Origin: a virus
Length of the DNA: 64,000 nucleotides
IMG/VR virus record: IMGVR_UViG_3300005613_000045
Span: 1-64,000 of that record
Reading direction: 5' to 3' (one strand)
In this document: in pieces, positions 6,483 to 47,999 of the stretch
Layout of the letters: each line of letters begins with the position of its first letter
Position numbering within the stretch: the stretch's first letter is position 1
Made by a program: the position numbers and the translations under genes
Notes under the pieces: generated by a model
Told to the model about the DNA's origin: nothing
Databases searched by the model: none
What the model saw: the letters and a program-made list of their open reading frames with translations, nothing else

Positions 6483-6554
6483 GCTGGTATAACTTAATGG
6501 TAAAGTAACCACCTTGTAAGTGGTGGAGTGTAGGTTCAAGTCCTACTACCAGCT
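6483..6554 (+). tRNA. tRNA-Thr (anticodon UGU)
   Basis: Folded by hand: acceptor GCTGGTA/TACCAGC, D stem ACTT/AAGT, anticodon stem ACCAC/GTGGT with loop CTTGTAA, T arm GTAGG-TTCAAGT-CCTAC. No encoded CCA. Confidence 0.85.
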
Positions 6555-8415: not shown

Positions 8416-8471
8416 TGTTGACAAATTATTGTAATTATATTAATCTATACTAAATAGTTGAGGAGAAGATA

Positions 8472-8924
8472 GTGACACAAATTATTCGTTTGGGTTATCC
8501 TTTTATGCAAAGACAAAGAATATCTAATCCTTATTCTGTAGAAAATAAACATGAAGGAGTAGATTTTGCAGCAGTAAAATCAGAAGACTATGCAGAGTTC
8601 TACGGTACACCTACTATTGCTACCCATGATGCGCAAATTCTTATCGGTTATTCTATTACGGGATATGGGTTATATGTTTATCTGAAATCTTTAGATGATC
8701 GTTTTGCTACACTTCATGCTCATTTATCAGAAACAATAGTTCCTGATCGAGAGATTGTTCATAAAGGAGATGTGGTCGGTTTGGTAGGTTGTACAGGAAA
8801 ATGTAAACCACCAGGAACACGAGGGACACACCTACATTTTGGATTCCGTACTCTTCCTGTGAGGACTAAATCTTATTGGGATTATGGGTATGTTGATCCT
8901 ATACCATTTATGGAGATGCTTTAA
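8472..8924 (+). CDS. M23-family (LytM-like) metalloendopeptidase, a candidate lysin
   Basis: GTG start with a GAGGAG RBS. HxxxD (HEGVD) and HxH (THLHFG) motifs are characteristic of peptidase M23. Confidence 0.7.
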   Translation: MTQIIRLGYPFMQRQRISNPYSVENKHEGVDFAAVKSEDYAEFYGTPTIATHDAQILIGYSITGYGLYVYLKSLDDRFATLHAHLSETIVPDREIVHKGDVVGLVGCTGKCKPPGTRGTHLHFGFRTLPVRTKSYWDYGYVDPIPFMEML

Positions 8925-9191
8925 ATGCTTGAATTCTCTTACGCTATTCGAGGAGAAGAGGAAGGGTGGGCAGAGAAAAAAGGGTTGATGCTAGAGAATC
9001 CTAGAGAATTGGCTAACAAGTCTGCAAGCTATGGTAGAGACATGTTTGTATTCTGGATGATAGAGCCAGATGGTAAGCTTCACTTTTATCGTTATCCAGA
9101 TATGATTAAAGATCTTCATTGGACAGGGCGAGAAGTTTTTCCTATTGATGCTTCTGATTTTATTAGTTGGGAGAAAGAATTATGTCAGTAA
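8925..9191 (+). CDS. Hypothetical protein
   Basis: 88-aa ORF; ATG overlaps the upstream stop. Confidence 0.5.
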   Translation: MLEFSYAIRGEEEGWAEKKGLMLENPRELANKSASYGRDMFVFWMIEPDGKLHFYRYPDMIKDLHWTGREVFPIDASDFISWEKELCQ

Positions 9192-10168
9192 AAAAGTTTG
9201 GTCCTTTTCTACAAAAGAATTCTACAAAAGTTTTTTTAAATGGTGCTCCTGTTGTTAAATTAATTGATCCTTCGATTCAAACAATCAAGGATGTTCGTGA
9301 TGCTATAGGGCCTAAGACACTTATTATTGTAAGAAAATTTTTTAAATCACAACCGCTGAAAGATCCTATTGGCGAAGCACAAAACTGGGGTAATATTTTT
9401 CTTCCCTACGTGACTTCGGGCTTGGATCGTAATGTTGTTTTTGAAGGATACAACGAAATCTCTGATGCAGACACAAGCGTACATGCAGTTTTTGAAGAAT
9501 ACAGACAAGCATTCTTACATCAATATGGCTATGGTGGAGTGTATGGTAATCATGGTGTAGGTAATCTTGATAACCGAAGTGCTCAACCATACGCTAAATT
9601 AGTTAGTAAATTTAATGATCGAGATTTTTTTGGTTGGCATTCTTATTGGGGAACAGATCAAACAGTTCTTAATCCTTGGCACACACTTCGCTGGACTCTT
9701 GTAGATATGCTTAAAGATGTTCCTGCTTTGGTTACAGAGTGTGGTAGAGATTTTGTTAAAGATATTAATCTGTCTCCTAGCTTGTGGGGAACACGAGGAT
9801 GGAGACTGGGAAAAATTTCTGAAGAGCAATACTATAACGAGTTTATGTCTTTTGGTGCTGCTTTGGATAGTTTCGATAATCTTGCAGGAGCAACAATATT
9901 TTTGGTTGGTCCTTGCGAAACACAGTGGGATAATTACCAATCCGAAAAATTATATCGCAGGATTAAAGAGAATCAAACAGAGAATTATTTTTATGTTTCG
10001 GATCAACCAATCCCCCCTGTGGATAGTCCTGAAGAACCTGACCACCCTATAGATCTGTTAGATCAGTTGTTTACTAAAACTTATAAGAATTTAACACAAA
10101 TCCAAAAACTCGTTGGTGAGGTAGAGGATGATGTAGAAAGTATGAGGAAGATGGTTTATGGGAAGTAA
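9182..10168 (+). CDS. Putative clan GH-A (GH5-like) glycoside hydrolase
   Basis: Start refined to ATG 9182. VVFEGYNEISD resembles the GH5 acid/base NEP signature and LVTECGRD resembles the nucleophile region. Read by eye only. Confidence 0.5.
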   Translation: MSVKKFGPFLQKNSTKVFLNGAPVVKLIDPSIQTIKDVRDAIGPKTLIIVRKFFKSQPLKDPIGEAQNWGNIFLPYVTSGLDRNVVFEGYNEISDADTSVHAVFEEYRQAFLHQYGYGGVYGNHGVGNLDNRSAQPYAKLVSKFNDRDFFGWHSYWGTDQTVLNPWHTLRWTLVDMLKDVPALVTECGRDFVKDINLSPSLWGTRGWRLGKISEEQYYNEFMSFGAALDSFDNLAGATIFLVGPCETQWDNYQSEKLYRRIKENQTENYFYVSDQPIPPVDSPEEPDHPIDLLDQLFTKTYKNLTQIQKLVGEVEDDVESMRKMVYGK

Positions 10169-10364
10169 TCAGACAAAATATTTTATTCGTTCTAAAGACA
10201 CAGGAATTTATCATCTAGTGAAAAACGAATTGAAAGGTGGTTTTCACCAAACCCTGTGTAATCTTATGGTACCACAAGTAGACACAGGAGATCCTCCAAC
10301 AGGCTATCGTCTGTGTCATCATTGCCAGGTTGTTCGAGATCGAGACGAACAACGAAGTAGTTGA
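10158..10364 (+). CDS. Small Cys/His protein
   Basis: 68-aa ORF with C...C and CHHC. Confidence 0.45.
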   Translation: MGSNQTKYFIRSKDTGIYHLVKNELKGGFHQTLCNLMVPQVDTGDPPTGYRLCHHCQVVRDRDEQRSS

Positions 10365-10443
10365 CAATTTATATTTAAAGCAGTAAAGTGTATTTACAAT
10401 AAAGATTATCCATCCTCCTTACGGTGTGTGGTTTCTCCCAGAT

Positions 10444-10484
10444 AAAGCCTGAGAGTCCTCTCCTCTCAGGCTTTGTCGTGTTTT
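10444..10484 (+). terminator. Rho-independent terminator
   Basis: 12-bp perfect stem AAAGCCTGAGAG/CTCTCAGGCTTT with a 7-nt loop, followed by GTCGTGTTTT. Confidence 0.7.
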
Positions 10485-10488
10485 ATAC

Positions 10489-10517
10489 TTGACACAGTTG
10501 GCGCATACTGATATGAT
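10489..10517 (+). promoter_or_regulatory. sigma70-type promoter TTGACA-N17-TATGAT
   Basis: Exact hexamers with a 17-bp spacer, immediately after the terminator. A GGAGGAG RBS and ATG 10559 follow. Confidence 0.65.
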
Positions 10518-10558
10518 GCAATTGTGATAAGTATACATAATCTTGGAGGAGATTTATA

Positions 10559-10942
10559 ATGTCTCAGACAAGCATCATCGAAGAAAAATATAAAGCTTGG
10601 TTAGGGACACCTCAAAGGCTTCGTCCAGCAGGACTGACAACGAAGAATCAGTTTGCTAAGAAATTTGATATAGACCCTGAAACGTTGGAACTCTGGCAAT
10701 TGCAACCTCGCTTTTGGGATGATGTCTTTGCTTCTGCTCGTAGTATTATTGGTTCTGAAATGTCTTCTATTATGGAAGCACTTTTGGAACGAGCGGAGGG
10801 TGGTAGCGTACAAGCTATCAAACTTTGTTTGGATCTATTGGGTGTGCATTCTGATAGTTTGGAATTGACTCACTCATTTAAGAATGATCAACTTGTACTT
10901 GTGTATGGTAACGCAGAAATTCCTAGCGAAGAAGAGGAGTAA
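10559..10942 (+). CDS. DNA-binding protein, candidate small terminase subunit
   Basis: 127 aa. It sits one small gene (10946..11353) upstream of the large terminase, is the first gene after the promoter, and has an acidic C-terminus. Confidence 0.4.
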   Translation: MSQTSIIEEKYKAWLGTPQRLRPAGLTTKNQFAKKFDIDPETLELWQLQPRFWDDVFASARSIIGSEMSSIMEALLERAEGGSVQAIKLCLDLLGVHSDSLELTHSFKNDQLVLVYGNAEIPSEEEE

Positions 10943-10945
10943 TTC

Positions 10946-11353
10946 ATGGAGAATTTGTTTACGATTGAAGATATGCTAAAGATTACTTGGGCTAGTCTTT
11001 CAAATCCTATCTCGCTCGCAATCTTTACTGTACTATTCATGCAACTGATTGGTAAGAATGTTATTGAACTGGGTCGTTATATTGTACTCAAGTTCGTAAT
11101 GAAGAAAGAAGTTGTTCCTGTATTGGATGGTTCAGAGGATTGGCCATTGCGAGGTGTGTTCTTTAATTTTGTGACTTATGCTTTTACTTTTGTATTGGCT
11201 AGGATGCAAGTTTCTGATACTTTCGCTGGGGGAGACGCTTTTGTGCTCTCTATTCTGGCTTCAACCTTCTCGATTGCTGTGTACGAAATTGTTAAGAACA
11301 TGCTTAAAATTGGGGGAGTGGAACTTATTACCAAGGGGTATAAGTGGCACTAA
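10946..11353 (+). CDS. Small integral membrane protein (3-4 TM helices)
   Basis: Hydrophobic segments ISLAIFTVLFMQLIG and YAFTFVLARM. Confidence 0.55.
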   Translation: MENLFTIEDMLKITWASLSNPISLAIFTVLFMQLIGKNVIELGRYIVLKFVMKKEVVPVLDGSEDWPLRGVFFNFVTYAFTFVLARMQVSDTFAGGDAFVLSILASTFSIAVYEIVKNMLKIGGVELITKGYKWH

Positions 11354-11358
11354 ACTAA

Positions 11359-12873
11359 ATGCCTAACTATTTTAAAGTTAGAAAAAATTTAGAGCCTTTT
11401 TTTAACTCCTATGCCCGTTTTTTACTGTTAGCTGGCGGCGTGGGTTCAGGCAAAACGGCATCAGGATCTGTGCTTGCTGTTAAAAAGATTGGGGAAGGTA
11501 AGGATGGTATTATAGTATCTCCTGACTTTCCCCAGCTTTCTCGTGCTACATGGCCAGAATTTATCAAATGGGCACCAATGTCTCGCTGTATCAATGCTCA
11601 CCTAGACCATCCATTCACACAGAAGAAGCAACTAAAATTTAATGTGAATGGTAAGATTGTTACCGTCTACTATGGTGGTATCGAAGATGAAGAAGGTTGG
11701 GCAGGTCCTAACGTAAACTGGGCATGGTTCGATGAAGGTGGTCGTAAGAGAACCAAGCGTGCTTTTGAAGTTCTCTCTGCTCGTATTCGTGTAGGCGATA
11801 ACCCCCAACTTTTTGTTACTACCACACCTGCAGGTACTTCACACTGGTTGTATGATATTTTTGTAAAGCAGGATTTTCCAGAAGAAGTATTACAAGCTCT
11901 AAAAGATTCTGGGTATGAAGGAAATCTTGCAGAATATATCCATGTAAAGACAGAAGAGAATAAAGAAAACCTCGATCCTTTCTATTATCTCTCTCTATCA
12001 AGTATGTATAGTGGTAAGGCAAAATCTCAGGAACTAGAAGGACAGTTTGTTTCGGCTGAGGGTGTGGTCTGGGAAAATCTGGACATGAACGAGGGTGGAA
12101 GAAACTGCACTGTGGATGCAGATTATGTTCCTGGAGTTCCTGTAGAATGGTGGGTGGACGACGGTTTTACTGAAGGACACCCTAGAGTTATGCTATTCGC
12201 TCAAGTAATTCCTCCTTACATTAATGTTTTTGATGAGCATATTAGTCTAGGAAAACTTCCAGAAATTTCTATTGCAGAAGCATTAGAAATGCCTTATAGT
12301 AAACCTACGATTGCTTATGTTGACTCGGCTGCTGCAGAATTAAGATCTCGTATTTGGCTTACAGATATTGATACAGTTTCGGCAACACACTCTGTAGAGG
12401 AAGGTATTAAACGTACATCATCCTGGATCTGTGATGCTAATTATGTAGGACATCTAAGATTTCATCCTCGTTGTACTTTCTCTCGTAAACAGATGCCTAA
12501 CTATTTTAGAGATCCTAAAACACAAAAGCCTATTAAAGATATGGATGACGTATCTGATGCAGTGCGTTACGGACTGTGGACAAAAGATAGAGAAACTATT
12601 TGGAATTCTATTACACCCAATTATACAAAATTGCTTATGGATCGTCGTGGTGTAGCAGATCAATTAGCAAAAGAAAAAGAAGAAGAACGTCTTCAACAAA
12701 TAGAAAATGATCCTTTGTCGCATTTATCTCCTTCTGGTATTATTACTCCAGAAGGACTCGATAAATTATACGCACAGCAGATAAGAGCTTCTAAAGCAGG
12801 ACATAACAGAAGGCAAGGTATGTATAATCCTACGATGGAAGATCTTATGAATCTTATGGAAGGTCGTTTATAA
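11359..12873 (+). CDS. terL: Terminase large subunit (ATPase plus nuclease)
   Basis: Walker A LLAGGVGSGKTASG and Walker B WAWFDEGG; 504 aa, typical size; sits before the portal. Confidence 0.85.
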   Translation: MPNYFKVRKNLEPFFNSYARFLLLAGGVGSGKTASGSVLAVKKIGEGKDGIIVSPDFPQLSRATWPEFIKWAPMSRCINAHLDHPFTQKKQLKFNVNGKIVTVYYGGIEDEEGWAGPNVNWAWFDEGGRKRTKRAFEVLSARIRVGDNPQLFVTTTPAGTSHWLYDIFVKQDFPEEVLQALKDSGYEGNLAEYIHVKTEENKENLDPFYYLSLSSMYSGKAKSQELEGQFVSAEGVVWENLDMNEGGRNCTVDADYVPGVPVEWWVDDGFTEGHPRVMLFAQVIPPYINVFDEHISLGKLPEISIAEALEMPYSKPTIAYVDSAAAELRSRIWLTDIDTVSATHSVEEGIKRTSSWICDANYVGHLRFHPRCTFSRKQMPNYFRDPKTQKPIKDMDDVSDAVRYGLWTKDRETIWNSITPNYTKLLMDRRGVADQLAKEKEEERLQQIENDPLSHLSPSGIITPEGLDKLYAQQIRASKAGHNRRQGMYNPTMEDLMNLMEGRL

Positions 12874-14958: not shown

Positions 14959-16944
14959 ATGCCCTACACAATTAAACCTGTAGACGGAAAATTCTGTATA
15001 TACAAAGAAGATCCTAATGGTCAACCTATGGGAGAACCTTTGCATTGTCATCCTTCGCAAGAAGCGGCAGTCGCACAGATTGCAGCAATTATGGCGAGTG
15101 AAAGATTTCCTCGTAAGAAGGATAAGAAAGATGTTCTGCTTCCAGCAGAGCGAGATCTGTTTGCCGAAATAGATAAATTACCTGCTGTTTCTGCTGAACC
15201 ACCTGTGGTCCCTTCAGTAGAACCTGTGGTTAAAGTTACAATTACTCCTGAGTATCAGCAAGAAATTACAGAGTTGTGTGGTGTCTTTGCTTCTAAGTTA
15301 GGTTATGAAGTAGCAGTGGTAGATAAAGAAGATCAATCTTTTCTTACCATTAATCTTCCTCATAATGGTTTATTGACTACACCAATTAAAAAGAGTGAAG
15401 ATACAGCTAAACTATTTCCTAATGTTCTATTGGAGACAAGCATTCCTGTTACAGAGATGGTAATAGATTACGAACCTGCAAAAAAGTATCTTACTAAAAT
15501 GGTTTCAGAATCTGTGATTAAGGTTACTGTTGATCCTTCAGAAGATACTCGACAAGATTCTGAAGAAGATGAAGAAGGTTCTGAGACTTGCAAGTGTACA
15601 GAATGTGGTTATGAAGCTCCTCATAAAGGCGGAGAACCTTGTGTAAATAAGTATTGTCCTGAATGCGGAGCCAAGATGATGAATGGTAAAGCAGAGGACG
15701 AGAAGGAAAAGGTTACTCCTGTGAAAGAAGAACCTGATGATGAGGTAGTTGAATTGGGCCATCGTAAAACTACTGCAGAAATGTTTGATTCTGTAATTAA
15801 CTTTGTGCGTCAAGTTGTAGGGTTTACTGTCGCTACGAAGAACCGTACTCTAGATAATGATTTGGATAAGATTCTTACTCTCATTAAAGAGATGAAAGAA
15901 ACTAAACCAGTCTTATTTACGGTGAAGAGCGGCGTTGATAAATATAGGTGGGTAGCTATCTCTTCTTCTAACTATCAAGATCGTGATGGAGAAATAGTAC
16001 CTACGAAAGCTTTGGAAAAAGATGTTTTAAATAATCCGACAGACAGAGGAAAACTACTCTTCTGGCACGAGCCTTCCCTAGAGTTAGGTGAGTGTGATTT
16101 TGCTGTTGTCTCTGATGGTTTTCTTGTGGAATCTGGTTACTGGTACAATAATAATCTTGGGGTGGCTGCTCGCAAAGCTGTAGAGCAACGTAGTAGCTAT
16201 TATGGTATGAGTATCGGATTTCAAGCATACGTTCCAGATATTGAAGAAAAACAAGTTGTAGGTGATAAAAATGTAAAATCAGTATATAATACAATTAGAA
16301 CTGTTGAACGTTCTTTGTTACCTGCAAAATGGGCATCTAATTTGTTTACAGCTATACAGACGAAAGGACACGAGATAATGGACCCGACAAAGTTGGCTGA
16401 GTTTGAAGGAATGGTTGGTAAGGAACTAGCTTCTGCTGTACTTGAAAAGATTACAAACAGCAAGAAAGAAGCTGAAGCTGTGGGTGTTGTTTCTAAAGAA
16501 GTGACTGTAGAAAATCCTTCTCCTTTGGAAGTTATGATCAAGTCTCTTGCCGAGGCTGGTTATACTGAGGAGGCCGAAGCTCTTAAAGCTTCAAAGCCTG
16601 CGAAGAAAATGACTCCCGAAGAAGAGGAAGCTGCTAAGGAAGAAGAAGATAAGAAGAAACTTCCTCCTCAGTTTGCTAAGAAAGAGCAAGCTACTCCTGA
16701 CGAGTCAGCAACTCTTGCTACACTTCTTTCTACTTTGATGGAACAGCAAGCTAATCTCACAAAAGAGATTGGTGAACTTAAAGCAAGCCAATCCACGCAG
16801 CAGGGTTTGGTACGCCCCTCACAGACTGTTGATACCGTTGTAAAAGAGGGCACTATCACACCTGTGGTAGAAAAGTCTGCTGGTGATATTGTTCTCGATA
16901 GTATGACTCAATCTATGCTTAATCGTCTTAATGGAGGTGCGTAA
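14959..16944 (+). CDS. Prohead protease (HK97-like S78) fused to a scaffold-like acidic coiled-coil region; contains a zinc ribbon
   Basis: Central WHEP and GMSIGF motifs, proposed by eye as catalytic His/Ser, compatible with an HK97-type S78 prohead protease. Zinc ribbon CKCTECG...CPECG. C-terminal Glu/Lys/Ala-rich region. Sits before the capsid gene. Confidence 0.5.
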   Translation: MPYTIKPVDGKFCIYKEDPNGQPMGEPLHCHPSQEAAVAQIAAIMASERFPRKKDKKDVLLPAERDLFAEIDKLPAVSAEPPVVPSVEPVVKVTITPEYQQEITELCGVFASKLGYEVAVVDKEDQSFLTINLPHNGLLTTPIKKSEDTAKLFPNVLLETSIPVTEMVIDYEPAKKYLTKMVSESVIKVTVDPSEDTRQDSEEDEEGSETCKCTECGYEAPHKGGEPCVNKYCPECGAKMMNGKAEDEKEKVTPVKEEPDDEVVELGHRKTTAEMFDSVINFVRQVVGFTVATKNRTLDNDLDKILTLIKEMKETKPVLFTVKSGVDKYRWVAISSSNYQDRDGEIVPTKALEKDVLNNPTDRGKLLFWHEPSLELGECDFAVVSDGFLVESGYWYNNNLGVAARKAVEQRSSYYGMSIGFQAYVPDIEEKQVVGDKNVKSVYNTIRTVERSLLPAKWASNLFTAIQTKGHEIMDPTKLAEFEGMVGKELASAVLEKITNSKKEAEAVGVVSKEVTVENPSPLEVMIKSLAEAGYTEEAEALKASKPAKKMTPEEEEAAKEEEDKKKLPPQFAKKEQATPDESATLATLLSTLMEQQANLTKEIGELKASQSTQQGLVRPSQTVDTVVKEGTITPVVEKSAGDIVLDSMTQSMLNRLNGGA

Positions 16945-18460: not shown

Positions 18461-19159
18461 ATGATTTGGCCAGCGATCACTGTGATGATCATTACTTATA
18501 AACGTCCAACTGAAATTAGAAAAACAATTTCAGCACTCAAAGAAAAAATAAAATATCCTGGTAAAATTTTTTGGCATATCGCTGATGACGAGTCTGGAGA
18601 AAATTATATTCCAGATATTAAAAAAGATTTTCCAGAACTAAAAATTTCTGGTACGACTTGTCATCGAGGCGGATGGGGAAAAAATTTTAATACTGCTTTT
18701 CGTGAAGTTGCTACAGAATATATCTTTGTTTGTGAAGATGATTATGTGGCTATTCGTGAGATTGATCTGCAGACAGGTATTCTATTGATGAAGGAATTAC
18801 CTACTACGGGATTAATTCGTTATGATGGAATAGAGGGACACAAACTAAATTTGTTCCTTCGCTCTGTTAAAAGTGAAGAAACTTCAGAAACTATCCAGTT
18901 TGCTTTTATTGATAGGGATAGTCCTGATCTATATATTTATAGCAATCGTCCGCATTTAGTAAGTAAAGCTTTTCACAACAAGTATGGTTTATATCCTGAA
19001 GGTATATCTTTAGGAATAACTGAAGAAGCTTTTGCACATATCATTAAAGATAGAGTAGAAGATGAAATGGATCTAGCTATATTATCCACAGGAATTCCTA
19101 GAGCTTTCGATCATATAGGGCACAGCTATCAGCTTACAACTGAAGACATTTCAAAATAG
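18461..19159 (+). CDS. GT-A fold (GT2-like) glycosyltransferase
   Basis: N-terminal VMIITYKRP plus downstream acidic IADDE/CEDD motifs fit a GT2-type nucleotide-sugar-binding domain. Confidence 0.5.
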   Translation: MIWPAITVMIITYKRPTEIRKTISALKEKIKYPGKIFWHIADDESGENYIPDIKKDFPELKISGTTCHRGGWGKNFNTAFREVATEYIFVCEDDYVAIREIDLQTGILLMKELPTTGLIRYDGIEGHKLNLFLRSVKSEETSETIQFAFIDRDSPDLYIYSNRPHLVSKAFHNKYGLYPEGISLGITEEAFAHIIKDRVEDEMDLAILSTGIPRAFDHIGHSYQLTTEDISK

Positions 19160-19169
19160 GAGGAACACT

Positions 19170-19718
19170 GTGGATTATTCAGAACATCTTAGCAATACTT
19201 TTGGTTTTATTTCTTTAGAAGAATTAGAACTTTTAAAAAAGTTTATTTCGCAAAGCGATTCTAAAGCTGTTGTATTAGACTTGGGAACAGGTTCAGGTAC
19301 TACTCTGACAGCCGTACTAGAAGAAAGCCCACAAGCAAAAATTACAACTGTCGATAACAAACCTTCTTCTGCAGAAGGGCGTATGCACGAAGCAGGATTC
19401 TCTTGTGAGAATGTTTCTTTTGTTGTTGAAGATTCTCTTAAAGCTGCAGAATTTTGGGATACCCCTGTGGACTTTATTATTTTTGACCTTGATGTTCCTG
19501 ATAATACTTTAGAGGATCATATTAGGGCATGGGCTGCTCATCTTAAAGTTGGTGCATATTTTGCAATGCACGATTATGGTGAAAAATTTTCTTCTTGGGA
19601 AAACAAGAAAAATATTCTAGACAAATTTGCTCGTTATAATGGATTAAAATTGCAAGAACAGGTAGGATGTTTGGCTATCTTTAAAAAATATTCTACAAAA
19701 CGAGGACGTAAAAAGTAA
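19170..19718 (+). CDS. Class I SAM-dependent methyltransferase
   Basis: Motif I VVLDLGTGSGTT; GTG start with TAGGAGG RBS. Confidence 0.7.
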   Translation: MDYSEHLSNTFGFISLEELELLKKFISQSDSKAVVLDLGTGSGTTLTAVLEESPQAKITTVDNKPSSAEGRMHEAGFSCENVSFVVEDSLKAAEFWDTPVDFIIFDLDVPDNTLEDHIRAWAAHLKVGAYFAMHDYGEKFSSWENKKNILDKFARYNGLKLQEQVGCLAIFKKYSTKRGRKK

Positions 19719-20305
19719 TGTGCAACAGCTGGTGTATAGATTTTGTTAAAGCGTCTATGGAATATTGGCCAAAGCATCCTGATATTCTTGAAGTAGGTAG
19801 CCTCAATGTGAATGGGTCTCCTCGTGATGTGTGCCAAGGAAAATATAAGTCATACACAGGAGTAGATATTACTCCTGGATTCTGTGTCGATCAGGTTGTA
19901 TCTGTAGAAGATCTTCCTAATACTGACATTAAAAAAGCTGATGTTGTAATCTCTACAGAGATGCTAGAGCATGTACATGATTGGAAGATTGCTTTGTTCA
20001 ATCTTCTTTTTATGCTTAAAGACAATGGTGTTCTTGTACTTACAACTCGTAGTCCTGGGTTTGAATATCATCCTTACCCTGAAGATAATTGGCGTTTTGT
20101 GGTTAAAGATTTTGAACACTTGTTTGATAACTCTATCTTTCCCACATCTTTTAAACTTGTTCACGCTGAACCAGACCCAGATCTTCGCAACGGTGTTAGT
20201 TGTGGTGTAGGAATTATTGTTCAGAAAATTGGCTATGATTTAAAAATTATTCAAGAGCGGATTAATTCGTTCGACGCTTATAACATGCACACTCATAGAG
20301 GTTAA
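19718..20305 (+). CDS. Class I SAM-dependent methyltransferase (Methyltransf_11-like)
   Basis: ILEVGSLNVNG and ISTEMLEHVHDW motifs. Confidence 0.6.
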   Translation: MCNSWCIDFVKASMEYWPKHPDILEVGSLNVNGSPRDVCQGKYKSYTGVDITPGFCVDQVVSVEDLPNTDIKKADVVISTEMLEHVHDWKIALFNLLFMLKDNGVLVLTTRSPGFEYHPYPEDNWRFVVKDFEHLFDNSIFPTSFKLVHAEPDPDLRNGVSCGVGIIVQKIGYDLKIIQERINSFDAYNMHTHRG

Positions 20306-20312
20306 GAATATC

Positions 20313-20822
20313 ATGGATAACTACAAATTCGCTAAGGGTTGGCTTACTGCTGACGAACGTGAAACACTAAAACATTATGCAGAACTTGCTCAAACAGAGT
20401 CTAATCGTCCTCTTATTATTAATATTGGTGTAGAGTATGGTGCTTCACTGCACTGTTTTCGTGCGGGTTCTTTGCTCGCAGATATTGTTGGGGTCGATCT
20501 TGATGTTTCAAAACTTGATGGTGATCCACGAGCGGAGCTAATTGCAGGGGATTCGACAGACAAGAATACAGCAGATCAAGCAGGTGAAGCTTGTGATATT
20601 CTGTTTGTAGATGGTGGTCATGCTGCTGGAAATGTTACAGACGACATCCGCTTGTGGTCTCCTAAAGTAATTAAAGGTGGGATTATGCTGTTCCACGATT
20701 ATTCTCCTTTGGATATGCACAGTGGTGTTGTGCAGGCTGTGGATACGTGGTATTCTAAAAATAAAAAGAATTGGGAATTCATTGAACAAGTAGATACAAT
20801 ACGAGTTTATCTTAGGAAGTAA
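20313..20822 (+). CDS. Putative class I SAM-dependent methyltransferase (O-MTase/Methyltransf_24-like)
   Basis: LIINIGVEYGASL, ILFVDGGHA and LFHDY arrangement. Confidence 0.5.
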   Translation: MDNYKFAKGWLTADERETLKHYAELAQTESNRPLIINIGVEYGASLHCFRAGSLLADIVGVDLDVSKLDGDPRAELIAGDSTDKNTADQAGEACDILFVDGGHAAGNVTDDIRLWSPKVIKGGIMLFHDYSPLDMHSGVVQAVDTWYSKNKKNWEFIEQVDTIRVYLRK

Positions 20823-22300: not shown

Positions 22301-22864
22301 ATGGCTCTTAAAGTTTATATAGCTTGCCCGAATAAAGGTAGTATAGATGCTCACACCGTGCTATGGCTGAGTCATGCCATAGCACAGCTTTCTAATAGTC
22401 TTGTGGTAGATTGTTTGCCTAGTCCTTATCCACTTCAGCAAGTAAGAAGTATGCAGCGCGAGAGGTTTTTAAAGAGTGATTGTACTCATATGTTCTTGCT
22501 GGATAGTGGTAAAGTTCCACAAGATCATACGATTCAGAAATTGCTTGAGCATGATAAAGATATTGTCGCAGCTCCACATCCTACTCGTATTGGATATGAG
22601 GTTGGACCAATGGTACTTGATCGTGTAGGTTCTGAGTATATGCAACATTATCCCTGGAAGGGTATGCAAGGACCGAATGTTGTAGTAGGATGTGGTGGTA
22701 TGCTCATTAAGAGAGAAGTTCTAGAGAAAGTTGGTCCTTTCTTTTGTCGCTATGATGATGCTGGATATGTTATTAAAACAGAAGATTTTGATTATTGTGA
22801 TCGTGCTCATAAATTAGGTTTTGAAGTCTGGGCAGATTTTAATCTAATACAGGAGCATTTTTAA
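22301..22864 (+). CDS. Putative GT-A fold glycosyltransferase
   Basis: C-terminal GCGGMLIKREV...TEDFDYCDRAHKLGFEV resembles the GT2 EDxDxxxRxxxxG region. Confidence 0.45.
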   Translation: MALKVYIACPNKGSIDAHTVLWLSHAIAQLSNSLVVDCLPSPYPLQQVRSMQRERFLKSDCTHMFLLDSGKVPQDHTIQKLLEHDKDIVAAPHPTRIGYEVGPMVLDRVGSEYMQHYPWKGMQGPNVVVGCGGMLIKREVLEKVGPFFCRYDDAGYVIKTEDFDYCDRAHKLGFEVWADFNLIQEHF

Positions 22865-23529
22865 TGACTTATAATGTTATAGGTTCTATTTTTCAAGACG
22901 ATAAAATATATAAATATGATGGATTTAGTTCTACTATTTTAACTTCTATTGCTACACCTGCAGAAGATTGTTATGATATTGGGCAACGTAATGATAATGT
23001 TTTATCTATTGATTATGTAACAGATAAGGTTTATGAGCTTGATGGTTTTACAACAACAATATTAAATAGTGTTGCTACAACAGAATTAACCAACACAGGT
23101 GTTACTTGGGATGGCTCAAATCTTATTGAAATGAATGTACAAACGGCTCGTTGCACAAAAGCTTCAGGTTTTTCTAATACTATTTCTGCTAGTTTTACTG
23201 CTCCTGTTACAAATCATTATGCAGTTGGCTGGGATGGAACTAATGCCCTTTCAACAAAAGCTGCAGGCGCTCCTCCTATTGTTTATCAATATACAGGATT
23301 CACAAGCTCTATTAAATCACAATTTAACGCCGCTGATTCTACTGTTCGGGGCATTGATATGGATGGAACAAATGTGCTAGTAGGTGTTAGTGGTAAAGTT
23401 GAAAAGCATGTAGGATTTACTTCTACTATTTCAAACTGTTTTAGTACAGGAGCAAACACAGCTTATATTATATGGTCTGATTTAGGTGCAGCAATTATAG
23501 CTAGAATGCTTTTAGGTGTTGGTGTTTAA
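22864..23529 (+). CDS. Protein built of about five ~43-aa internal repeats (GF[ST]x[ST]I ... DG[ST]N)
   Basis: Repeats are directly visible, e.g. YKYDGFSSTILTSIAT, YELDGFTTTILNSVAT, YQYTGFTSSIKSQFNA and KHVGFTSTISNCFST. Confidence 0.55.
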   Translation: MTYNVIGSIFQDDKIYKYDGFSSTILTSIATPAEDCYDIGQRNDNVLSIDYVTDKVYELDGFTTTILNSVATTELTNTGVTWDGSNLIEMNVQTARCTKASGFSNTISASFTAPVTNHYAVGWDGTNALSTKAAGAPPIVYQYTGFTSSIKSQFNAADSTVRGIDMDGTNVLVGVSGKVEKHVGFTSTISNCFSTGANTAYIIWSDLGAAIIARMLLGVGV

Positions 23530-23549: not shown

Positions 23550-25907
23550 ATGAAACTATTCCTTAATCCTCCTGCAAAGAAAAAAGAAAAGCTAGGTAGT
23601 GGTGTCGATGTTGTAGTTTATCAAATGACTAAACATCTACAAGAAATAGCTAATGTATTTCTTGTCCCTACTGTGGATGAAGCAGATATTTTTGCTACAC
23701 ATATTTCTGCTGAAGGATCTCGTCCTGCAGATGTTCTTCATTGTCATGGTCTCTATCCTACACAGGATAGAGAATCTGATAAATGGATGTGGAAAATTAA
23801 CCAGCTTGTTATCGAGTCTGCTAAGAAAGCTGTGTTGGTTACAGTTCCTTCTCCTTGGGTAGCTGAAATTTTTCAACGAGATATGGGATTCACACCAGAA
23901 ATTATTCCTCATGGTTTAGATTTAGCAGAGTGGAAACCTAGAACTCTAGGGCAAACACCTACTATTTTGTGGAATAAGAATAGAAATTCTGATGTCTGTA
24001 ATCCTGATCCTGTTAATGAGATCGCTGCTATAGCTAAGGATCTTTCTTTTGTATCTACCTTTGGTAAAGCTACACCTAACGTGAAAATTGTAGGCTCTAT
24101 GCCTCATCCACAAATGAAAGAGCTTTTATACCAAAGTGGGATTTATCTCGCTACAACAAAAGAAACTTTTGGTATAGGTATTCTTGAAGCTTTGATTTGT
24201 GGACTACCTGTGCTGGCTTGGAATTATGGTAATGCTCCTTACCTCGTACAGCATAAAGTCACAGGATATATTGCACAGCCTGGAGACTACCAAGATTCTG
24301 TTGCAGGCTTGCATTATATCACAGAGAATTGGGAAGAACTTTCCAAGAATGCTCAAGCTTACGCTAAAAGATTTTCTTGGAAAGAGGTTGCACTCCAATA
24401 TTTGCGTGTGTATGAAAAAGCCCTAGAAATTAAAGAAGAAGAAAAAGTAGGGCGTGTCAGCTTTGTTATGCCTTGTCATAATTATGGACAATGGGTAGGA
24501 GAAGCTATCCATTCTGTGCGTAATCAAACACGAGCAAACATTGAATGTATTGTTATTGATGATGGGTCCACAGATAACTCCTATGAAAAAGCTCTCGAAG
24601 CTGCAGGAGATGACCCACGAATTCGTGTGATTAAGCAAGAGAATCAAGGTGTAGCAGCTACAAGAAATCGTGGAGCAATGCTTGCTAAAGGTCCCTTCCT
24701 TTCTTTTTTGGATGCTGATGATAGACTGAGACCAGAATTTGTAGAGCGTCTTTTACCTGAACTTCAGGCAGATCGTTCTCTCGGTATCTCTTATGGTAAA
24801 CTAGCCATCATGGATAAGGATGGTAATACTACAGGACAAGCAAGAGATTGGCCAGAAGATTACTCCGCAGATAAGCAACTACAAAAGCAGAATAGAATTC
24901 CTGCTTGTTGTCTTATGCGCAAAGAAATCTTTTTACGCACAGGTGGGTTCAGACAGCATACAGCACCAACAGAAGACGCCGAACTGTGGGCACGCTTTGC
25001 ACTTATCGGATATAGAGGAAAGCTTTCTACAATTAAACCTGTGTATGATTACAGGTTGCATGGTAATAGTGCTTCTACAAGTTTGCAAGGTAAACCTGCG
25101 CCTGATTGGACAAGCTGGTTGGCTGCAGCTAATGGTGGAAAGGTTCCCTTCGCTGCAGAAGTTTCCAAAAAAGAAGCCTCACACCCTGTGTTAGATTATG
25201 ATCAACCTTTTATTTCTTTTATTATTCCTGTGGGTCCTGATCATGTTAAACATCTGCAGAGAGCTTTGGAATCAGTTGCTGGGCAGACATTACCTACATG
25301 GGAAGCTGTGGTTATTGATGATACAGATGAAGGTGATCTTAAAAAGCAAGGAAGTATTCCTTACGAGATTGCTTATCCTTGGGTAAGATGGGTAAGAAAT
25401 ACAAAGCTGCATAATGTGAGCGCTGCAAGAAACCAGGGGGCGGCTGTAGCTAGAGGAAAGTATCTTTGCTGCTTGGACGCTGACGATTATATCTATCGTG
25501 ACTTCATGGCAGGTATGAAGAACGTCTTGGACTATTGCGAAGGCGATGCACGTATTGTATACTCTGATTGGGTATCAATGCCTAATGGAGAAGTACATAA
25601 AGCGGAAAACTGGAACATTCAAAGACTTAAAGATCACGCTCTTTTCGCAGTTACTTTTGCAGTTCCTCGTTCAGCTTATTTTCAAGTGGGTGGTTTTGAT
25701 GAATCACTCGATCTCTGGGAAGATTGGGATTTTACAATCAAGCTTGCTCTTGCGGGATATGTAGGTATTCGTGTACCGAAACCTTTGTTTGCTTATTGTT
25801 ATGATACAGGAGAGCGGCGAGAGCAGAGCCTAGAAAATAAAGATAGATTGTTTAAAGCAATTCGAGGAGAATACGAAGCAGTTATTCCTGCAGCAAGGCG
25901 TGGTTGA
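23550..25907 (+). CDS. Three-domain glycosyltransferase: GT4/GT1-like (E-x7-E) plus two GT2 domains
   Basis: ETFGIGILEAL is the GT4 EX7E motif. First GT2 domain: VSFVMPCHNYGQW...VIDDGSTDNS...FLDADD. Second GT2 domain: ISFIIPVGPDH...VVIDDTDEG...CLDADD. 785 aa in total. Confidence 0.75.
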   Translation: MKLFLNPPAKKKEKLGSGVDVVVYQMTKHLQEIANVFLVPTVDEADIFATHISAEGSRPADVLHCHGLYPTQDRESDKWMWKINQLVIESAKKAVLVTVPSPWVAEIFQRDMGFTPEIIPHGLDLAEWKPRTLGQTPTILWNKNRNSDVCNPDPVNEIAAIAKDLSFVSTFGKATPNVKIVGSMPHPQMKELLYQSGIYLATTKETFGIGILEALICGLPVLAWNYGNAPYLVQHKVTGYIAQPGDYQDSVAGLHYITENWEELSKNAQAYAKRFSWKEVALQYLRVYEKALEIKEEEKVGRVSFVMPCHNYGQWVGEAIHSVRNQTRANIECIVIDDGSTDNSYEKALEAAGDDPRIRVIKQENQGVAATRNRGAMLAKGPFLSFLDADDRLRPEFVERLLPELQADRSLGISYGKLAIMDKDGNTTGQARDWPEDYSADKQLQKQNRIPACCLMRKEIFLRTGGFRQHTAPTEDAELWARFALIGYRGKLSTIKPVYDYRLHGNSASTSLQGKPAPDWTSWLAAANGGKVPFAAEVSKKEASHPVLDYDQPFISFIIPVGPDHVKHLQRALESVAGQTLPTWEAVVIDDTDEGDLKKQGSIPYEIAYPWVRWVRNTKLHNVSAARNQGAAVARGKYLCCLDADDYIYRDFMAGMKNVLDYCEGDARIVYSDWVSMPNGEVHKAENWNIQRLKDHALFAVTFAVPRSAYFQVGGFDESLDLWEDWDFTIKLALAGYVGIRVPKPLFAYCYDTGERREQSLENKDRLFKAIRGEYEAVIPAARRG

Positions 25908-25928
25908 GGAGGCAATAAACAAGCTGCC

Positions 25929-26198
25929 GTGAGCAGCGCTCCTCAGAAAGTTGTTCCTGCAACTTATGACAGCATCAGCCCCCCTGTGATTGCTGCTAAA
26001 GCTTCTGTAGAACGACGCTATGACATGGTTAAAATTCGTTATACTAGAAACATTTTAGGCATGAGGATTTTTCCTCTTCCTTCAAAACATAAATATCGCT
26101 TTGATGCTAGTCCTAGTAACAGAGAAAAAATTGTTCCAAGATATGATGCTGATGAATTGATGTCACGTTATCCTAATACCTTTGAGATTATAGAGTAG
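25929..26198 (+). CDS. Hypothetical protein
   Basis: 89-aa ORF. Confidence 0.45.
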   Translation: MSSAPQKVVPATYDSISPPVIAAKASVERRYDMVKIRYTRNILGMRIFPLPSKHKYRFDASPSNREKIVPRYDADELMSRYPNTFEIIE

Positions 26199-26205
26199 GT
26201 GCAGC

Positions 26206-27369
26206 ATGGCCAGAAGTGATTTTGAAACCTTACTTCCGCTAGATAGTTATGCAAGAATTATTGGTGTAGATCCAAGACATTTTAATCAAGTGTATTGTGA
26301 ATCTTTTCCTGATCGACGAGGAGAAGATCTAGTATGGTTTCAAGATCACTGGCCACAACCAGGAAGAGCTAGTCGAGATGATGTAGCTATTGCTATTGCA
26401 GAAGCAGAAGAACTTATTGCAGAAGTCTTAGGTTTCTATGTTGCTCCAAAATACACAGTCAATGAATCACACATATTTCCTGGATTAGTTTTTAAACCTT
26501 TAAGTTATAATCGAATTCATGTGGGTTTAGAGCATTTAAAGTATATTGCTGGTGGATGTAGAACAGTTGACTCTATCGAAGAGGGAGTAGATATTTCTTC
26601 TTCGTATGTTGATCTAGATGGTGATGGATGGGATGAACAAATTCTTTTCACTGTCACACACGCAGACGCAGCTTCTTGGCAAGCAGAAGAGATAGGTATT
26701 TTTCCTCCAGGAAGTGATACGGATATAACTAATCAGATTAGAGGATTGCGAATCTCTATCAGCGGGACAACTATTACAGTGCGAGGTCAATCAGCACAGT
26801 TTGTTATCCCCGAACTGTGGAATTCTTATCAAGGAATTAATGGTGATGATCCTACAGTCTTCTTACAGACTGTGGATGTACATAGGATTTATACAGCATC
26901 CTCAGAAGATTGCCCTCCTGTGAAGTTTGTTTATAGAGATGATTCTGTATATCCTCCACAAGCTTTTACTTACGGTATTCTAGAAGAAGTAATGCCAGAC
27001 AGAGGATTAGTAGAAACTATTCCTGCTACTTGGGATGGTACAACATGGACAATTAGCGCTGTTTCGTGTAGTATATTAAAAAAGCCAGAACGTATTATGT
27101 TAAATTATCTGAGTGGGCATCCTTTGCTAAGAGGAGAGGTTCACCCCAAACTCTCCCGCGCAATTGCTGCTTTAGCTACGGCTCGTCTAACTTCTCCTAT
27201 CACAGGAGGAGGTGAATCTGTTAATAAGATTTACTACGAATGGCAACGTCCAGCCATCGAAGCAAACTATGCTCAAAATGTATGCCCATTCGGAGATCGT
27301 CATGGGGCATGGATTGCTTGGCAGATCGTACATACAATGTTTGGTTCTTCAAATAGTTTTTCGCTTTAG
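26206..27369 (+). CDS. Hypothetical virion structural protein
   Basis: 387-aa ORF in the late block. Confidence 0.55.
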   Translation: MARSDFETLLPLDSYARIIGVDPRHFNQVYCESFPDRRGEDLVWFQDHWPQPGRASRDDVAIAIAEAEELIAEVLGFYVAPKYTVNESHIFPGLVFKPLSYNRIHVGLEHLKYIAGGCRTVDSIEEGVDISSSYVDLDGDGWDEQILFTVTHADAASWQAEEIGIFPPGSDTDITNQIRGLRISISGTTITVRGQSAQFVIPELWNSYQGINGDDPTVFLQTVDVHRIYTASSEDCPPVKFVYRDDSVYPPQAFTYGILEEVMPDRGLVETIPATWDGTTWTISAVSCSILKKPERIMLNYLSGHPLLRGEVHPKLSRAIAALATARLTSPITGGGESVNKIYYEWQRPAIEANYAQNVCPFGDRHGAWIAWQIVHTMFGSSNSFSL

Positions 27370-27377
27370 GAGGCACT

Positions 27378-44412: not shown

Positions 44413-44496
44413 TGAGGTGGGAGGGATTTGAACCCTCATGGCGTTTCCGCCAGCGGCTTTTAAGGCCGCCATGTCTACCAATTCCATCACCACCCC
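44413..44496 (-). tRNA. tRNA-Leu (anticodon UAA), type II with a long variable arm
   Basis: Reverse complement folds as acceptor GGGGTGG/CCACCTC (one G-U pair), anticodon stem GCGGC/GCCGC with loop CTTAAAA, 15-nt variable arm, and T arm GAGGG-TTCAAAT-CCCTC. Confidence 0.85.
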
Positions 44497-47700: not shown

Positions 47701-47999
47701 CCTGCTGCTTCTTCTTTTTGTTTTTCATCCTGACCAAAACACAAACAAGTATTGGTGAACCAATAGGAAGACAGATCTTCTAGGTGCAGAGTATCCCGCA
47801 GAATTTTAAAGCTATCAGCAGAGAATATTTTTCGATTGACAACCTCCTGTGTTGTTGGTCCTTCTCCAACGATCACAAGATCTGCGTGCTGCTGATTGTC
47901 TAGCTTACCCTGACCTCTAAGACCGATACGATTTTTAAAGGGACAATTTTCACAAGCTGCGAGAGGGTGTTTACGACTACTCATTTTGAATCTCTTCAA
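44781..47999 (-). CDS. Family A DNA polymerase with an N-terminal family-4 UDG-like domain, a 3'-5' exonuclease, and an intein in motif A
   Basis: UDG4-like: Cys cluster CENCP...CLC...C, GEGPT and HPGAV. Exonuclease I: VLDIETNSLD. Polymerase: NLQNQP; motif A split as VFVEADF|...|SQIEYRTIALLS; motif B RSSAKTFNFALLYG; motif C VHDSI. Confidence 0.9.
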   Translation of the reverse strand: MKRFKMSSRKHPLAACENCPFKNRIGLRGQGKLDNQQHADLVIVGEGPTTQEVVNRKIFSADSFKILRDTLHLEDLSSYWFTNTCLCFGQDEKQKEEAAGLCKDRLLDEIASLKPKLVLTLGNLATKNLLGKGPGITKRRGIRKTIDIPVKDGDSYRVEVIPTVHPGAVMKNNRLLADITADLKYVHAILNPDIFDVRPPNPEEVKYVLTEDYDMVLRKAQQNSFCVLDIETNSLDPVSGKIILLVMAPSEDELVYLIPEHVIYSQGFAEALKKASPQVAWSGHNVKFDRNFIRLQLGVTLDFKYDTLLAHYLLDERQGTHGAKEICAAMFRAPDWDTPVKEFFTGKDVDYSAMPTQMLHTYTANDGYWQRVMTWELHKMLKPQEKLVWIYKNLLMPGVLALSNAEAKGILLDQQLLQTLIPKYESKALDAYKQMEQCCGHEFNPRSPQQVSHILFDELGLPEIDGRSTNAKTVLSMLENQHEFVRMLLDYREAYTISSRYVTGLQNSMLADGRVHTSFNLAGTVTGRLSSSTPNLQNQPSRNKEAKTDIRNLFIADLGSVFVEADFCLHPETLVETFEGAKPLKDIHVGERVYSVDDHKVCAGLVTKEVNVGMLESFRITLDNGESIIASKDHKWLIKTGKGRRYHPIEERTTENLTIGDRLLPFNRYVNPRNGYVHLYTTHATDYIKEHILVAETLFGKRNKNTHVHHKDGNRQNNLPDNLTYVNAKKHWSEHGKQNYAEQDHTLRLNNLREGIKNRRSYVGKNNPNYGKRSGTFVVCPICGKECYVTKGNTKKYCSRECYDTARRGGKNHVIIDIQPVGLQPMRAITVDDQHNFALSCGVFTCNSQIEYRTIALLSQDPYLINCYREGRDLHGETARDGWGDDYTKANRSSAKTFNFALLYGASEDKLQRDGTHGVDPEIVHKIASAFFSKMPKVVEYNEKVKQLVLEQGYVESLLGRKRRFPELVYVKNDRYRVSEIFRQAINMIPQSSASDATLASIIALDKLGLSVRMTVHDSITACVPEEDAEDAVHELSKCMEGTAAELYGDTIPFPVEAERGYRWGSLIVEED
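45459..46298 (-). mobile_element. Intein (280 aa) with an HNH endonuclease domain, inserted in Pol A motif A
   Basis: Begins with Cys (CLHPETLV, block A-like) and has a block-B-like SKDHKWL. HNH motif is HVHHKDGNRQNN...H with a zinc ribbon CPICG...C..C. Ends ...VFTCN and is followed by Ser. The flanks reconstitute ADFSQIEYR, like ADYSQIELR. Confidence 0.75.

Follow-up and report, generated by a model that had tools for sequence, protein, structure and literature searches.

A three-domain glycosyltransferase in a variable gene island behind the capsid gene of uncultured siphophages

Positions 1 to 64,000 of the IMG/VR virus record IMGVR_UViG_3300005613_000045 (the window, that is, the whole 64-kb stretch of DNA that was analysed) contain an open reading frame (ORF) whose 785-amino acid (aa) product, named here tri-GT, carries three glycosyltransferase (GT) domains. 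The locus raises the question of what such a protein assembles in a phage and on which acceptor. The window belongs to an uncultured tailed phage, a siphophage, and tri-GT lies in its late structural operon. The reading preferred here, to which we give a probability of roughly 0.55, is that tri-GT forms the core of a hypervariable island making glycans on a virion protein in the cytoplasm. Both the late-operon context and a fourth module, located behind an in-frame TGA, go beyond the initial annotation of the gene, which was made from the sequence alone.

Domains, conservation and model of tri-GT

The tri-GT is a soluble protein with three intact GT domains: a GT4-type domain with a GT-B fold, of a retaining family, followed by two GT2 domains with a GT-A fold, of an inverting family (Table 1). 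The initial annotation had described a single polypeptide with one GT4-type EX7E domain and two GT2 domains with their own DxD motifs, and Pfam, the invariant residues, AlphaFold2 and Foldseek bear it out. All the motifs quoted there are present: ETFGIGILEAL (E205 to E213) in the first domain, VIDDGSTDNS and FLDADD (D388-A-D390-D391) in the second, and VVIDDTDEG and CLDADD (D643-A-D645-D646) in the third. In Pfam, Glycos_transf_1 (PF00534) matches residues 176-274 (3.5e-18), Glyco_transf_4 matches residues 57-126 weakly (E 9.8e-06, 26.1 bits, under the 28.5-bit cut-off), Glycos_transf_2 (PF00535) covers two separate stretches (5.4e-52) and Glyco_transf_7C matches residues 693-744. The N-terminal domain shows the fold, the EX7E motif and the basic residues of GT4-type GT-B enzymes, and each GT2 copy shows the DxD site and the downstream acidic residues of GT2-type GT-A enzymes. 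The two GT2 domains share 25% identity (E 2e-14) and are thus paralogous; the second by itself matches the solved GT-A enzymes 3bcv (1.3e-8) and K4CP, the chondroitin polymerase of Escherichia coli K4 (4.5e-8), and domain 2 matches residues 362-578 of K4CP (2z86) with an E value of 1.5e-29. No transmembrane segment was found in tri-GT.

A search of 5.8 billion proteins gave at least 120 full-length homologues, with 36-69% identity at a coverage of about 100%. When 38 of these (37-69% identity) were aligned, the catalytic residues proved invariant in each of the three domains: K143, R145, E205 and E213 in the GT-B domain; D338, D388, D390, D391, E475 and D476 in the first GT2 domain; and D591, D643, D645, D646, E724 and D725 in the second. 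The AlphaFold2 model built on this alignment has a predicted local distance difference test (pLDDT) of 92.5 and a predicted template modelling (pTM) score of 0.92, therefore the three domains are packed in a defined arrangement. Three sites, and not a single one, are intact, and both GT2 domains are modelled with GT-A folds. The top PDB matches of the model in Foldseek are K4CP (E 4e-27) and PmHS2, the heparosan synthase of Pasteurella (E 3e-21), over 513-576 columns that include both GT-A domains, and the N-terminal domain matches the GT4 enzyme BshA (3mbo over 377 columns, also 6d9t). The likeness to polymerising multi-GT enzymes, which the initial annotation had proposed, thus stands for the tandem GT2 pair, whose best fold matches span both domains; but the O-antigen and teichoic-acid polymerases, WbbB and KpsC, which it had named, are not the closest relatives. 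Its analogy with O-antigen, capsule or teichoic-acid assembly does not fit a protein devoid of membrane segments, in a locus that shows no lipid-carrier or export genes.

Gene frame, glycan island and candidate acceptors

Genomic contexts were compared by script for six homologues and 79 IMG/VR loci, and synteny was counted over 91 full-length tri-GT loci. The capsid gene lies upstream of tri-GT in 76/91 loci, and a gene encoding a 387-aa protein and another encoding a BNR protein lie downstream in 82/91 and 76/91, respectively. Between the stop codon of the capsid gene and the start of tri-GT lie 17 bp to more than 9.3 kb (at least 11 genes), with a median of 3.4 kb, and in the loci with a 17-bp spacer (L088, L052, L047 and L049) no gene is found between capsid and tri-GT. 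In a reverse test anchored on the capsid gene, which covered 46 loci with 10 kb downstream, tri-GT is within 10 kb in 36 loci; nine show neither tri-GT nor the 387-aa gene and have an island larger than 10 kb, two of them being demonstrably the same contigs as tri-GT loci; and one, L128, is devoid of tri-GT. The constant capsid, 387-aa and BNR frame around a variable spacer therefore makes tri-GT a lineage-wide core gene of the structural module, and its absence from L128 indicates that it is dispensable for the virion module. The family is present in 317 IMG/VR stretches and more than 120 protein clusters, and full-length members are found only on viral contigs or on taxonomically incoherent contigs of metagenome-assembled genomes (MAGs). 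The matches in genome collections are short MAG contigs from incoherent phyla, with no isolate genome, and are evidently mis-binned phage. A metagenome scan with the single tri-GT protein gave three close relatives only.

The islands between the capsid gene and tri-GT contain 386 ORFs, which were grouped at 35% identity into 208 clusters. A Pfam census of 150 cluster representatives is dominated by nucleotide-sugar enzymes (NAD epimerase/dehydratase, GDP-mannose dehydratase, RmlD, Polysacc_synt_2, DegT aminotransferase and UDP-glucose dehydrogenase, the latter in 2/150 representatives) and by glycan-tailoring enzymes: many methyltransferases, including the rhamnosyl-O-methyltransferase/CmcI and FkbM types, Sulfotransfer_1/3, GNAT acetyltransferases, extra GT2s and TOD1/MUCI70. 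Single loci also hold an adenosine phosphosulfate (APS) kinase, and one locus a polysaccharide pyruvyl transferase. Sulfotransferases with APS kinase, UDP-sugar dehydrogenase, epimerases, DegT and pyruvyl transferase are found in L002 (3759-9490), L006 (2473-9492), L004 (756-9987), L244 and L245. The presence of sulfation and acidic-sugar genes beside a K4CP-like tri-GT hints at sulfated or acidic viral glycans. Genes encoding N6/N4 DNA methylases (4/150) and HNH endonucleases (3/150) are scattered in the islands, for instance directly upstream of tri-GT in L002 and L006, and may be mobile elements that add to island turnover.

The intact domains, their conservation, the phage context, the synteny and the variability of the island are observed, whereas which protein is glycosylated, in what order the domains act and what they make are our inferences. 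Late in infection, the GT4 domain would add a priming sugar to a phage virion protein in the cytoplasm. The prime candidate for the acceptor is the capsid protein, with the 387-aa protein, the BNR protein and a small C-terminal module as alternatives. The two GT2 domains would then extend the chain, giving a short core oligosaccharide or, if they alternate, a repeating disaccharide; since the GT2 pair is most like K4CP and PmHS2, alternating disaccharide polymerisation is a live possibility, and a fixed trisaccharide core the conservative alternative. Other enzymes of the island, here one GT2, a GT-like ORF and three methyltransferases, would supply unusual donors and branch and decorate the glycan, a role that in relatives may fall to nucleoside diphosphate (NDP)-sugar dehydratases and epimerases, aminotransferases, sulfotransferases with APS kinase and acetyltransferases. 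The outcome would be a phage-specific glycan coat, methylated in this phage and sulfated in relatives. A virion protein is the most economical acceptor, because it is made at the same time and place, and the island, three methyltransferases included, shares an operon with the capsid gene, which is the genomic linkage of virion-glycosylation systems. As the product of a phage late-operon gene, tri-GT likely acts on a virion protein and not on a cell-wall polymer. The initial annotation had also suggested that no accessory proteins are needed. Some relatives have tri-GT right behind the capsid gene with no other sugar genes, and there it is evidently able to work alone, but in this phage it shares its operon with the GT2, the GT-like ORF and the methyltransferases.

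Several observations weigh against a virion acceptor. No covariation with the presence of tri-GT was found in the capsid, 387-aa or BNR proteins, and the capsid protein of L128, which has no tri-GT, is otherwise ordinary, with no obvious difference seen. No Mycobacterium phage is present among the 108 tblastn matches of tri-GT, which shows no homology to the mycobacteriophage enzymes at the sensitivity of tblastn. Among the 120 best homologues, seven bear a C-terminal helix-hairpin-helix domain (PF14520/PF12826), which could point to DNA binding. Moreover, the operon position is circumstantial evidence for function, and the virion acceptor is to be taken as a prediction from it.

Remodelling of the host surface is an improbable alternative, in which the island would make or modify an envelope polysaccharide such as an O-antigen, capsule or teichoic acid, one possible purpose being superinfection exclusion. 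The gene content is like that of O-antigen or capsule loci, the GT2 domains match TarP, RmlT and GtrB-like families, and the tandem GT2 pair is like those of capsule polymerases; but tri-GT is soluble, and no polytopic proteins of the Wzx, Wzy, WecA or ABC type are found by hydropathy among the 386 island ORFs, 332 of which show no hydrophobic segment and none more than four, or in the top 25 of the Pfam census. Furthermore, neither an integrase nor a lysogeny module turned up in the 64 kb of the window, late expression just before lysis leaves little time for surface conversion, and the constant partner genes belong to the virion module.

A little less probable still is DNA hypermodification, in which tri-GT and the island would build glycans on a modified base of the genome (glucosyl- or arabinosyl-hydroxymethyl pyrimidines are examples of such bases) and so protect it from restriction. 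DNA modification is the classical role of phage GTs, a variety of DNA glycans has been described (Pyle et al., 2024, cited in a passage of PMC12619734), and the helix-hairpin-helix domain and the DNA methylases of a few islands would agree with a DNA substrate. Against it, the scanned ORFs contain no ThyA-like hydroxymethylase or base-modification gene, only ThyX; the genes of relatives are in the late structural operon behind the capsid gene and not in the replication arm; and sulfation, pyruvylation and amino-sugar synthesis, in islands reaching 11 or more genes, far exceed the known DNA glycans.

In this phage, eight ORFs separate the capsid gene from tri-GT, and the genes abut or overlap throughout (Table 1). 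The 187-aa ORF is GT-like by weak matches to PF13641 and phrog_1574, and the 298-aa ORF matches a short ORF in L001. The 182-, 187- and 221-aa ORFs show no match in the 91 related loci. The 221-aa ORF (22864-23529), with no match in any library searched, contains five repeats of about 40 aa, each with a (D)GF(S/T)(S/T)(T/S)I motif, and is possibly a small beta-propeller. No UDP-glucose dehydrogenase or other gene for the supply of UDP-glucuronic acid (UDP-GlcA) is found in the window.

The 484-aa protein upstream of the island is the major capsid protein, as judged from its structural model, of which the top 50 Foldseek matches listed are all HK97-fold phage capsids or encapsulins (prob 1.00). 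The hairpin that follows its gene has a dG of -27.4 kcal/mol and a z of -6.15, without a U tract, and precedes a strong Shine-Dalgarno (SD) sequence and ATG. Its site, between the capsid stop and the first GT gene, is the usual one for an attenuator reducing downstream expression, and this hairpin is a probable attenuator or stabiliser; a strong hairpin followed by an SD-ATG fits a lower, catalytic-level expression of the island. Downstream of tri-GT, a profile of the 387-aa family gave nothing against the PDB. The 492-aa protein (27378-28856) has a C-terminal beta-propeller of the Ycf48/BNR type (profile against the PDB, E 1.9e-12). Its N-terminal 200 aa or so contain four conserved Cys (C90, C101, C183 and C186). 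Its gene lies past the island and before that of the tape measure. The protein may serve in the tail or for decoration, and its fold may be carbohydrate-related.

The phage genes identified in the window encode terminase, tape measure, tail proteins, PolA, SNF2 and ThyX, and a leftward replication arm contains the SNF2 helicase, a family-A polymerase, a PD-(D/E)XK nuclease, AAA_24 and ThyX. There is no close cultured relative: a megablast search with 10 kb found nothing in 50,697 phage records, and the 108 tblastn matches of tri-GT in the same records are partial, low-identity GT matches only. PHROGs and Pfam gave no match for the 456-, 661-, 484-, 387-, 298-, 182-, 221- and 89-aa proteins, and PDB sequence searches gave nothing meaningful for the 484-, 387-, 661-, 221- and 298-aa proteins. 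The 661-aa protein (14959-16944), encoded between the portal-like and capsid genes and with no database match, shows a four-Cys zinc-ribbon-like segment (CKCTEC...CPEC, about residues 210-240) and a long acidic coiled-coil-like C-terminus, and is probably a scaffold or protease fusion. The 1072-aa family-A DNA polymerase (44781-47999, minus strand) has an N-terminal domain of the uracil-DNA-glycosylase superfamily and a 3'-5' exonuclease domain; its residues 691-731 form an inserted HNH_3 endonuclease domain, which could be a homing element or an intein-like insertion.

Table 1. Location of tri-GT, its domains and the neighbouring features in the window.
Feature	Position	Strand	Basis or remark
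Large terminase	11359-12873
Major capsid protein, HK97 fold, 484 aa	16944..18398	+	Model and Foldseek
Hairpin, perfect 14-bp stem, GAAA loop	18410..18441	+	Between capsid stop and SD-ATG of the first GT gene
Separate GT2, 232 aa, semi-conserved	18461..19159	+	PF00535 at 2e-9; homologue in 38/91 loci
Three S-adenosylmethionine-dependent methyltransferase genes	19170-19718, 19718-20305, 20313-20822	+	Pfam Methyltransf_31/24/23/11; same trio in L001
Four ORFs, largely phage-specific: 298 aa, 182 aa, GT-like 187 aa (22301-22864), 221 aa	20851..23529	+
tri-GT ORF	23550..25907	+	ATG to TGA, 785 aa, soluble; ORF list, Pfam, homologues, model
tri-GT domain 1, about aa 1-295	23550..24434	+	GT-B fold, GT4-type (retaining family); EX7E E205/E213 and K143/R145; PF00534, PF13692, PF13439
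tri-GT domain 2, about aa 300-525	24447..25124	+	GT-A fold, GT2; DD 337-338, DADD 388-391, ED 475-476; PF00535 at 304-461
tri-GT domain 3, about aa 552-778	25203..25883	+	Second GT-A/GT2; DD 590-591, DADD 643-646, ED 724-725; second PF00535 stretch and PF02709
In-frame TGA, candidate recoding site (selenocysteine or read-through)	25905..25907	+	Ends the 785-aa ORF
Fourth module: basic linker and small beta-domain	25908..26198	+	Listed as 89-aa ORF 25929..26198
Hairpin GCUGC-CGUGA-GCAGC	25923..25937	+	15 nt after TGA; conserved by covariation
387-aa protein and 492-aa BNR protein	26206..28856	+	Conserved downstream frame
Tape measure	29793-32669		Minor tail and fibre proteins also present

The fourth module and the in-frame TGA

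The tri-GT and the fourth module are in one frame, parted by a single stop, TGA, with 96 open codons beyond it, and therefore the translated product may exceed 785 aa. The 89-aa ORF is homologous to the C-terminus of P0044 (E 9e-7), and in most members of the family the module is fused to tri-GT, the distant homologues thus being of 850-1200 aa. In 83/83 distinct fused homologues, a conserved two-Cys motif (CxxC, CC or CxC) is located directly after the last GT2 domain, before a disordered linker and the small beta-domain, and the TGA position aligns with its first Cys (TGT or TGC), as in ...EMG-TGA-GKG... against ...(E/L)M(A/G)-C-x-x-C-G... in fused relatives. The sequences with TGA are 16, from 12 lineages with 45-97% identity: the window, L195-197, L001, L002/6, L036, L042, L043 and L244-249. 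The stop of tri-GT is TGA in 12/12 lineages and the frame is open into the module in all of them. In the window TGA accounts for 6/60 stops, and only that of tri-GT has a long open continuation. Among close relatives, the codons just past the TGA vary at third positions only.

All 16 sequences show a hairpin that starts 10-19 nt past the TGA, with unrelated stem sequences and apical loops of G[G/U]N; the fused relatives with Cys show no consistent hairpin at the corresponding position. Ten sequences align without gaps, and in this alignment 49/50 cells of the five core pairs are paired, with 2-5 pair types for each; the hairpin has a covariation score of 0.758, whereas shuffles give 0.193 +/- 0.046 (0/500) and sliding gives 0.07-0.25. 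A 2026 review of prokaryotic selenoproteomes (PMC13188914) gives as consensus for the bacterial selenocysteine insertion sequence (bSECIS) a stem of 4-16 bp, a loop of 3-9 nt with G in its first two positions, a UGA-loop distance of 16-37 nt and a minimum free energy of -7.5 kcal/mol or lower, together with Cys/Sec (selenocysteine) pairing and TGA-containing homologues. This geometry is found in 16/16 TGA sequences, which show stems of 4-11 bp, a spacing of 20-27 nt and CGUGA, CGUGC, GUN, GGN or AGGC loops, although L006 fits only in the register of L002 (loop CGUGC), its lowest-energy fold having a UCC loop. The local hairpin reaches -7.5 kcal/mol in 13/16 and is weaker in the window (-6.3), L197 (-4.6) and L043 (-3.2), which with 54 nt of context give -13.2, -7.6 and -7.1 kcal/mol, respectively. 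A UGA aligned with Cys in homologues and the presence of TGA homologues in other genomes are likewise found.

A TGA aligned with Cys and a covarying hairpin that mostly fits bSECIS suggest Sec insertion or read-through. From these sequence features, programmed recoding of some kind, yielding a long isoform, is slightly to be favoured. The next reading, which has a real chance but falls short of even odds, is that TGA is an ordinary stop, that tri-GT and the small ORF became separate genes by a TGY-to-TGA mutation, and that the hairpin serves translational coupling or mRNA stability. The change from TGT or TGC to TGA takes one mutation, most lineages have a GAGG SD-like sequence overlapping the stop, 7/16 sequences have an in-frame GUG in the hairpin loop, and the second Cys of the motif is not kept. 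Nevertheless, such a stop has to be reconciled with TGA in every lineage of the set, though the genome seldom uses it, and with the third-position-only changes beyond it. The loop codon is GUA, GUU, GGU, GGC or GGA, none of them a start codon, in many lineages, and the hairpin, lying where it does past the stop, would be outside the terminating ribosome and so would not be opened by termination. The same loop codons led us to reject, as a general explanation, a GUG start codon displayed by the hairpin. Reassignment of TGA in the genetic code (code 4 or 25) was also rejected, as five other genes end in TGA with further stops soon after and the ORFs are intact under table 11.

Decoding of the TGA as Sec through the SECIS-like hairpin is a tentative proposal, more doubtful than the ordinary stop. 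The TGA clade has lost the second Cys of the motif, except in L042 (U-G-C), Rfam gave no match at the TGA/hairpin junction, and no oxidoreductase or redox fold is evident, all of which weigh against Sec. The window shows no tRNA-Sec; only two phage tRNA genes were found, tRNA-Thr (UGU) at 6483-6554 (plus strand) and tRNA-Leu (UAA) at 44413-44496 (minus strand). If Sec were inserted, tri-GT could be, as an equally tentative extension, a phage selenoprotein of about 880 aa and four modules, in which Sec would replace the conserved Cys at the junction with the docking module, and the core of a strain-variable virion glycan coat.

The small beta-domain is also found apart from tri-GT. Extra tandem free ORFs with an N-terminal MGCGC motif lie right after the fused tri-GT in L005 (12578-13035), L038-L041 and P0243, and this group also has a 292-aa protein with three copies of the domain. 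In L128, where the module is free-standing, the order at 6985-12420 is capsid gene, 186-aa ORF, 109-aa hydrophobic ORF, 387-aa homologue, 146-aa ORF and BNR protein, and the 186-aa ORF carries the small beta-domain with a CGGCG motif. The free or tandem copies, like its presence in a locus without tri-GT, indicate that the small module has its own role, plausibly docking to the particle. A phmmer search with the 89-aa module against 1.84 billion representatives gave 6 matches only, and is too insensitive for mapping its distribution.

These copies also bear on the possibility, an unlikely one, that tri-GT is a self-priming carrier, whose acceptor would be its own fourth module (the Cys pair, here the TGA-encoded residue, or the low-complexity linker next to it), glycosylated in cis in a glycogenin-like or S-linked manner; the small beta-domain would then dock the glycan-bearing module on the particle. 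The two-Cys motif follows the last GT2 domain in every fused homologue, the module occurs as free or tandem ORFs in L005, L128 and P0243, and SunS is a GT2-family S-glycosyltransferase. On the other side, the TGA clade has not kept the second Cys, and module and Cys motif are kept in L128, therefore the role of the motif is independent of the GT. A separate virion protein is preferred here as the acceptor.

Comparison with known systems

To our knowledge, experimental proof of virion glycosylation in phages is confined to a few mycobacteriophages. Passages of PMC11600133, PMC12363180 and PMC12619734, through which Freeman et al. (2023) is cited here, describe the mycobacteriophages Che8, Corndog and Myrna as glycosylating capsid and tail-tube subunits with their own GTs, and the Cluster O phages as having an O-methyltransferase gene followed by three tandem GT genes. 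The system of this phage is like these in having phage-encoded GTs with methyltransferases and, as proposed, a glycan shield on the particle. In contrast, it shows no sequence homology detectable by tblastn, Che8 gp110 and Corndog gp38 included, therefore the tri-GT system is an analogue and not a family member. Unlike the tandem genes of Cluster O, the three GT activities are fused in one polypeptide, and unlike the mycobacteriophage systems, this one has a hypervariable island that reaches at least 11 genes, with its own NDP-sugar pathways and sulfation, and environmental bacterial hosts, its glycosylation being a prediction.

The bifunctional glycosaminoglycan polymerases K4CP and PmHS2 (8vh7/8viw), a type that makes a repeating disaccharide by transferring GlcA and HexNAc in alternation, are, like tri-GT, soluble proteins with two tandem GT-A domains, each with its own DxD. 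They match both GT-A domains of tri-GT best in sequence and in fold, with 16-20% identity. The islands of some relatives encode a UDP-glucose dehydrogenase and an epimerase, and separate loci a sulfotransferase with APS kinase, a further likeness to these polymerases. They differ from tri-GT in the inter-domain orientation (root mean square deviation of 15-19 A), and tri-GT has in addition an N-terminal GT4 domain, a location in a phage structural operon and no UDP-GlcA supply genes in the window.

The A064R protein of chlorovirus PBCV-1, which consists of two GT domains and a methyltransferase, is virus-encoded and builds capsid-protein glycans in the cytoplasm, and the glycan gene clusters of giant viruses are clade-specific. 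A virus-encoded multi-domain glycan enzyme is common to these and to tri-GT, but they belong to eukaryotic viruses and differ in domain families and order. In BFVD, multi-GT proteins of giant viruses and uncultured Caudovirales match tri-GT with identities of up to 16% and low TM scores (full-length multi-GT matches, ranks 1-11).

We know of no described bacteriophage selenoprotein. The TGA junction is like bacterial selenoprotein genes with bSECIS in the in-frame UGA aligned with Cys, the TGA homologues in many genomes and the stem-loop 20-27 nt downstream, with G[G/U] in an apical loop of 3-5 nt. It differs from known bSECIS genes in that tri-GT is phage-encoded, the partner Cys is lost and the minimal hairpin is weaker than -7.5 kcal/mol in 3/16. 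In the review cited above (PMC13188914) phage or virus is not mentioned (0 occurrences).

A large and widespread lineage of uncultured environmental siphophages thus has a hypervariable glycan island directly behind the capsid gene, with tri-GT as the constant element. Should the particle bear these glycans, diversifying selection of the O-antigen-like kind known from bacterial surfaces would act on phage surfaces too, which would matter for phage engineering as well as for adsorption, aggregation and grazing or immune recognition. The sulfotransferase, APS kinase and UDP-GlcA genes of relatives, beside a K4CP-like polymerase, hint at sulfated, glycosaminoglycan-like viral glycans, and the conserved TGA with its SECIS-like hairpin is a directly testable case of recoding, possibly by Sec, in a phage gene. 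Virion glycosylation by phage GTs and multi-domain GTs in giant viruses and uncultured-phage proteomes were already known; new are the fused GT4-GT2-GT2 core, its constant place behind the capsid gene throughout a large uncultured lineage, an island around it that turns over in the manner of O-antigen loci and includes sulfation genes, and the conserved TGA/hairpin junction.

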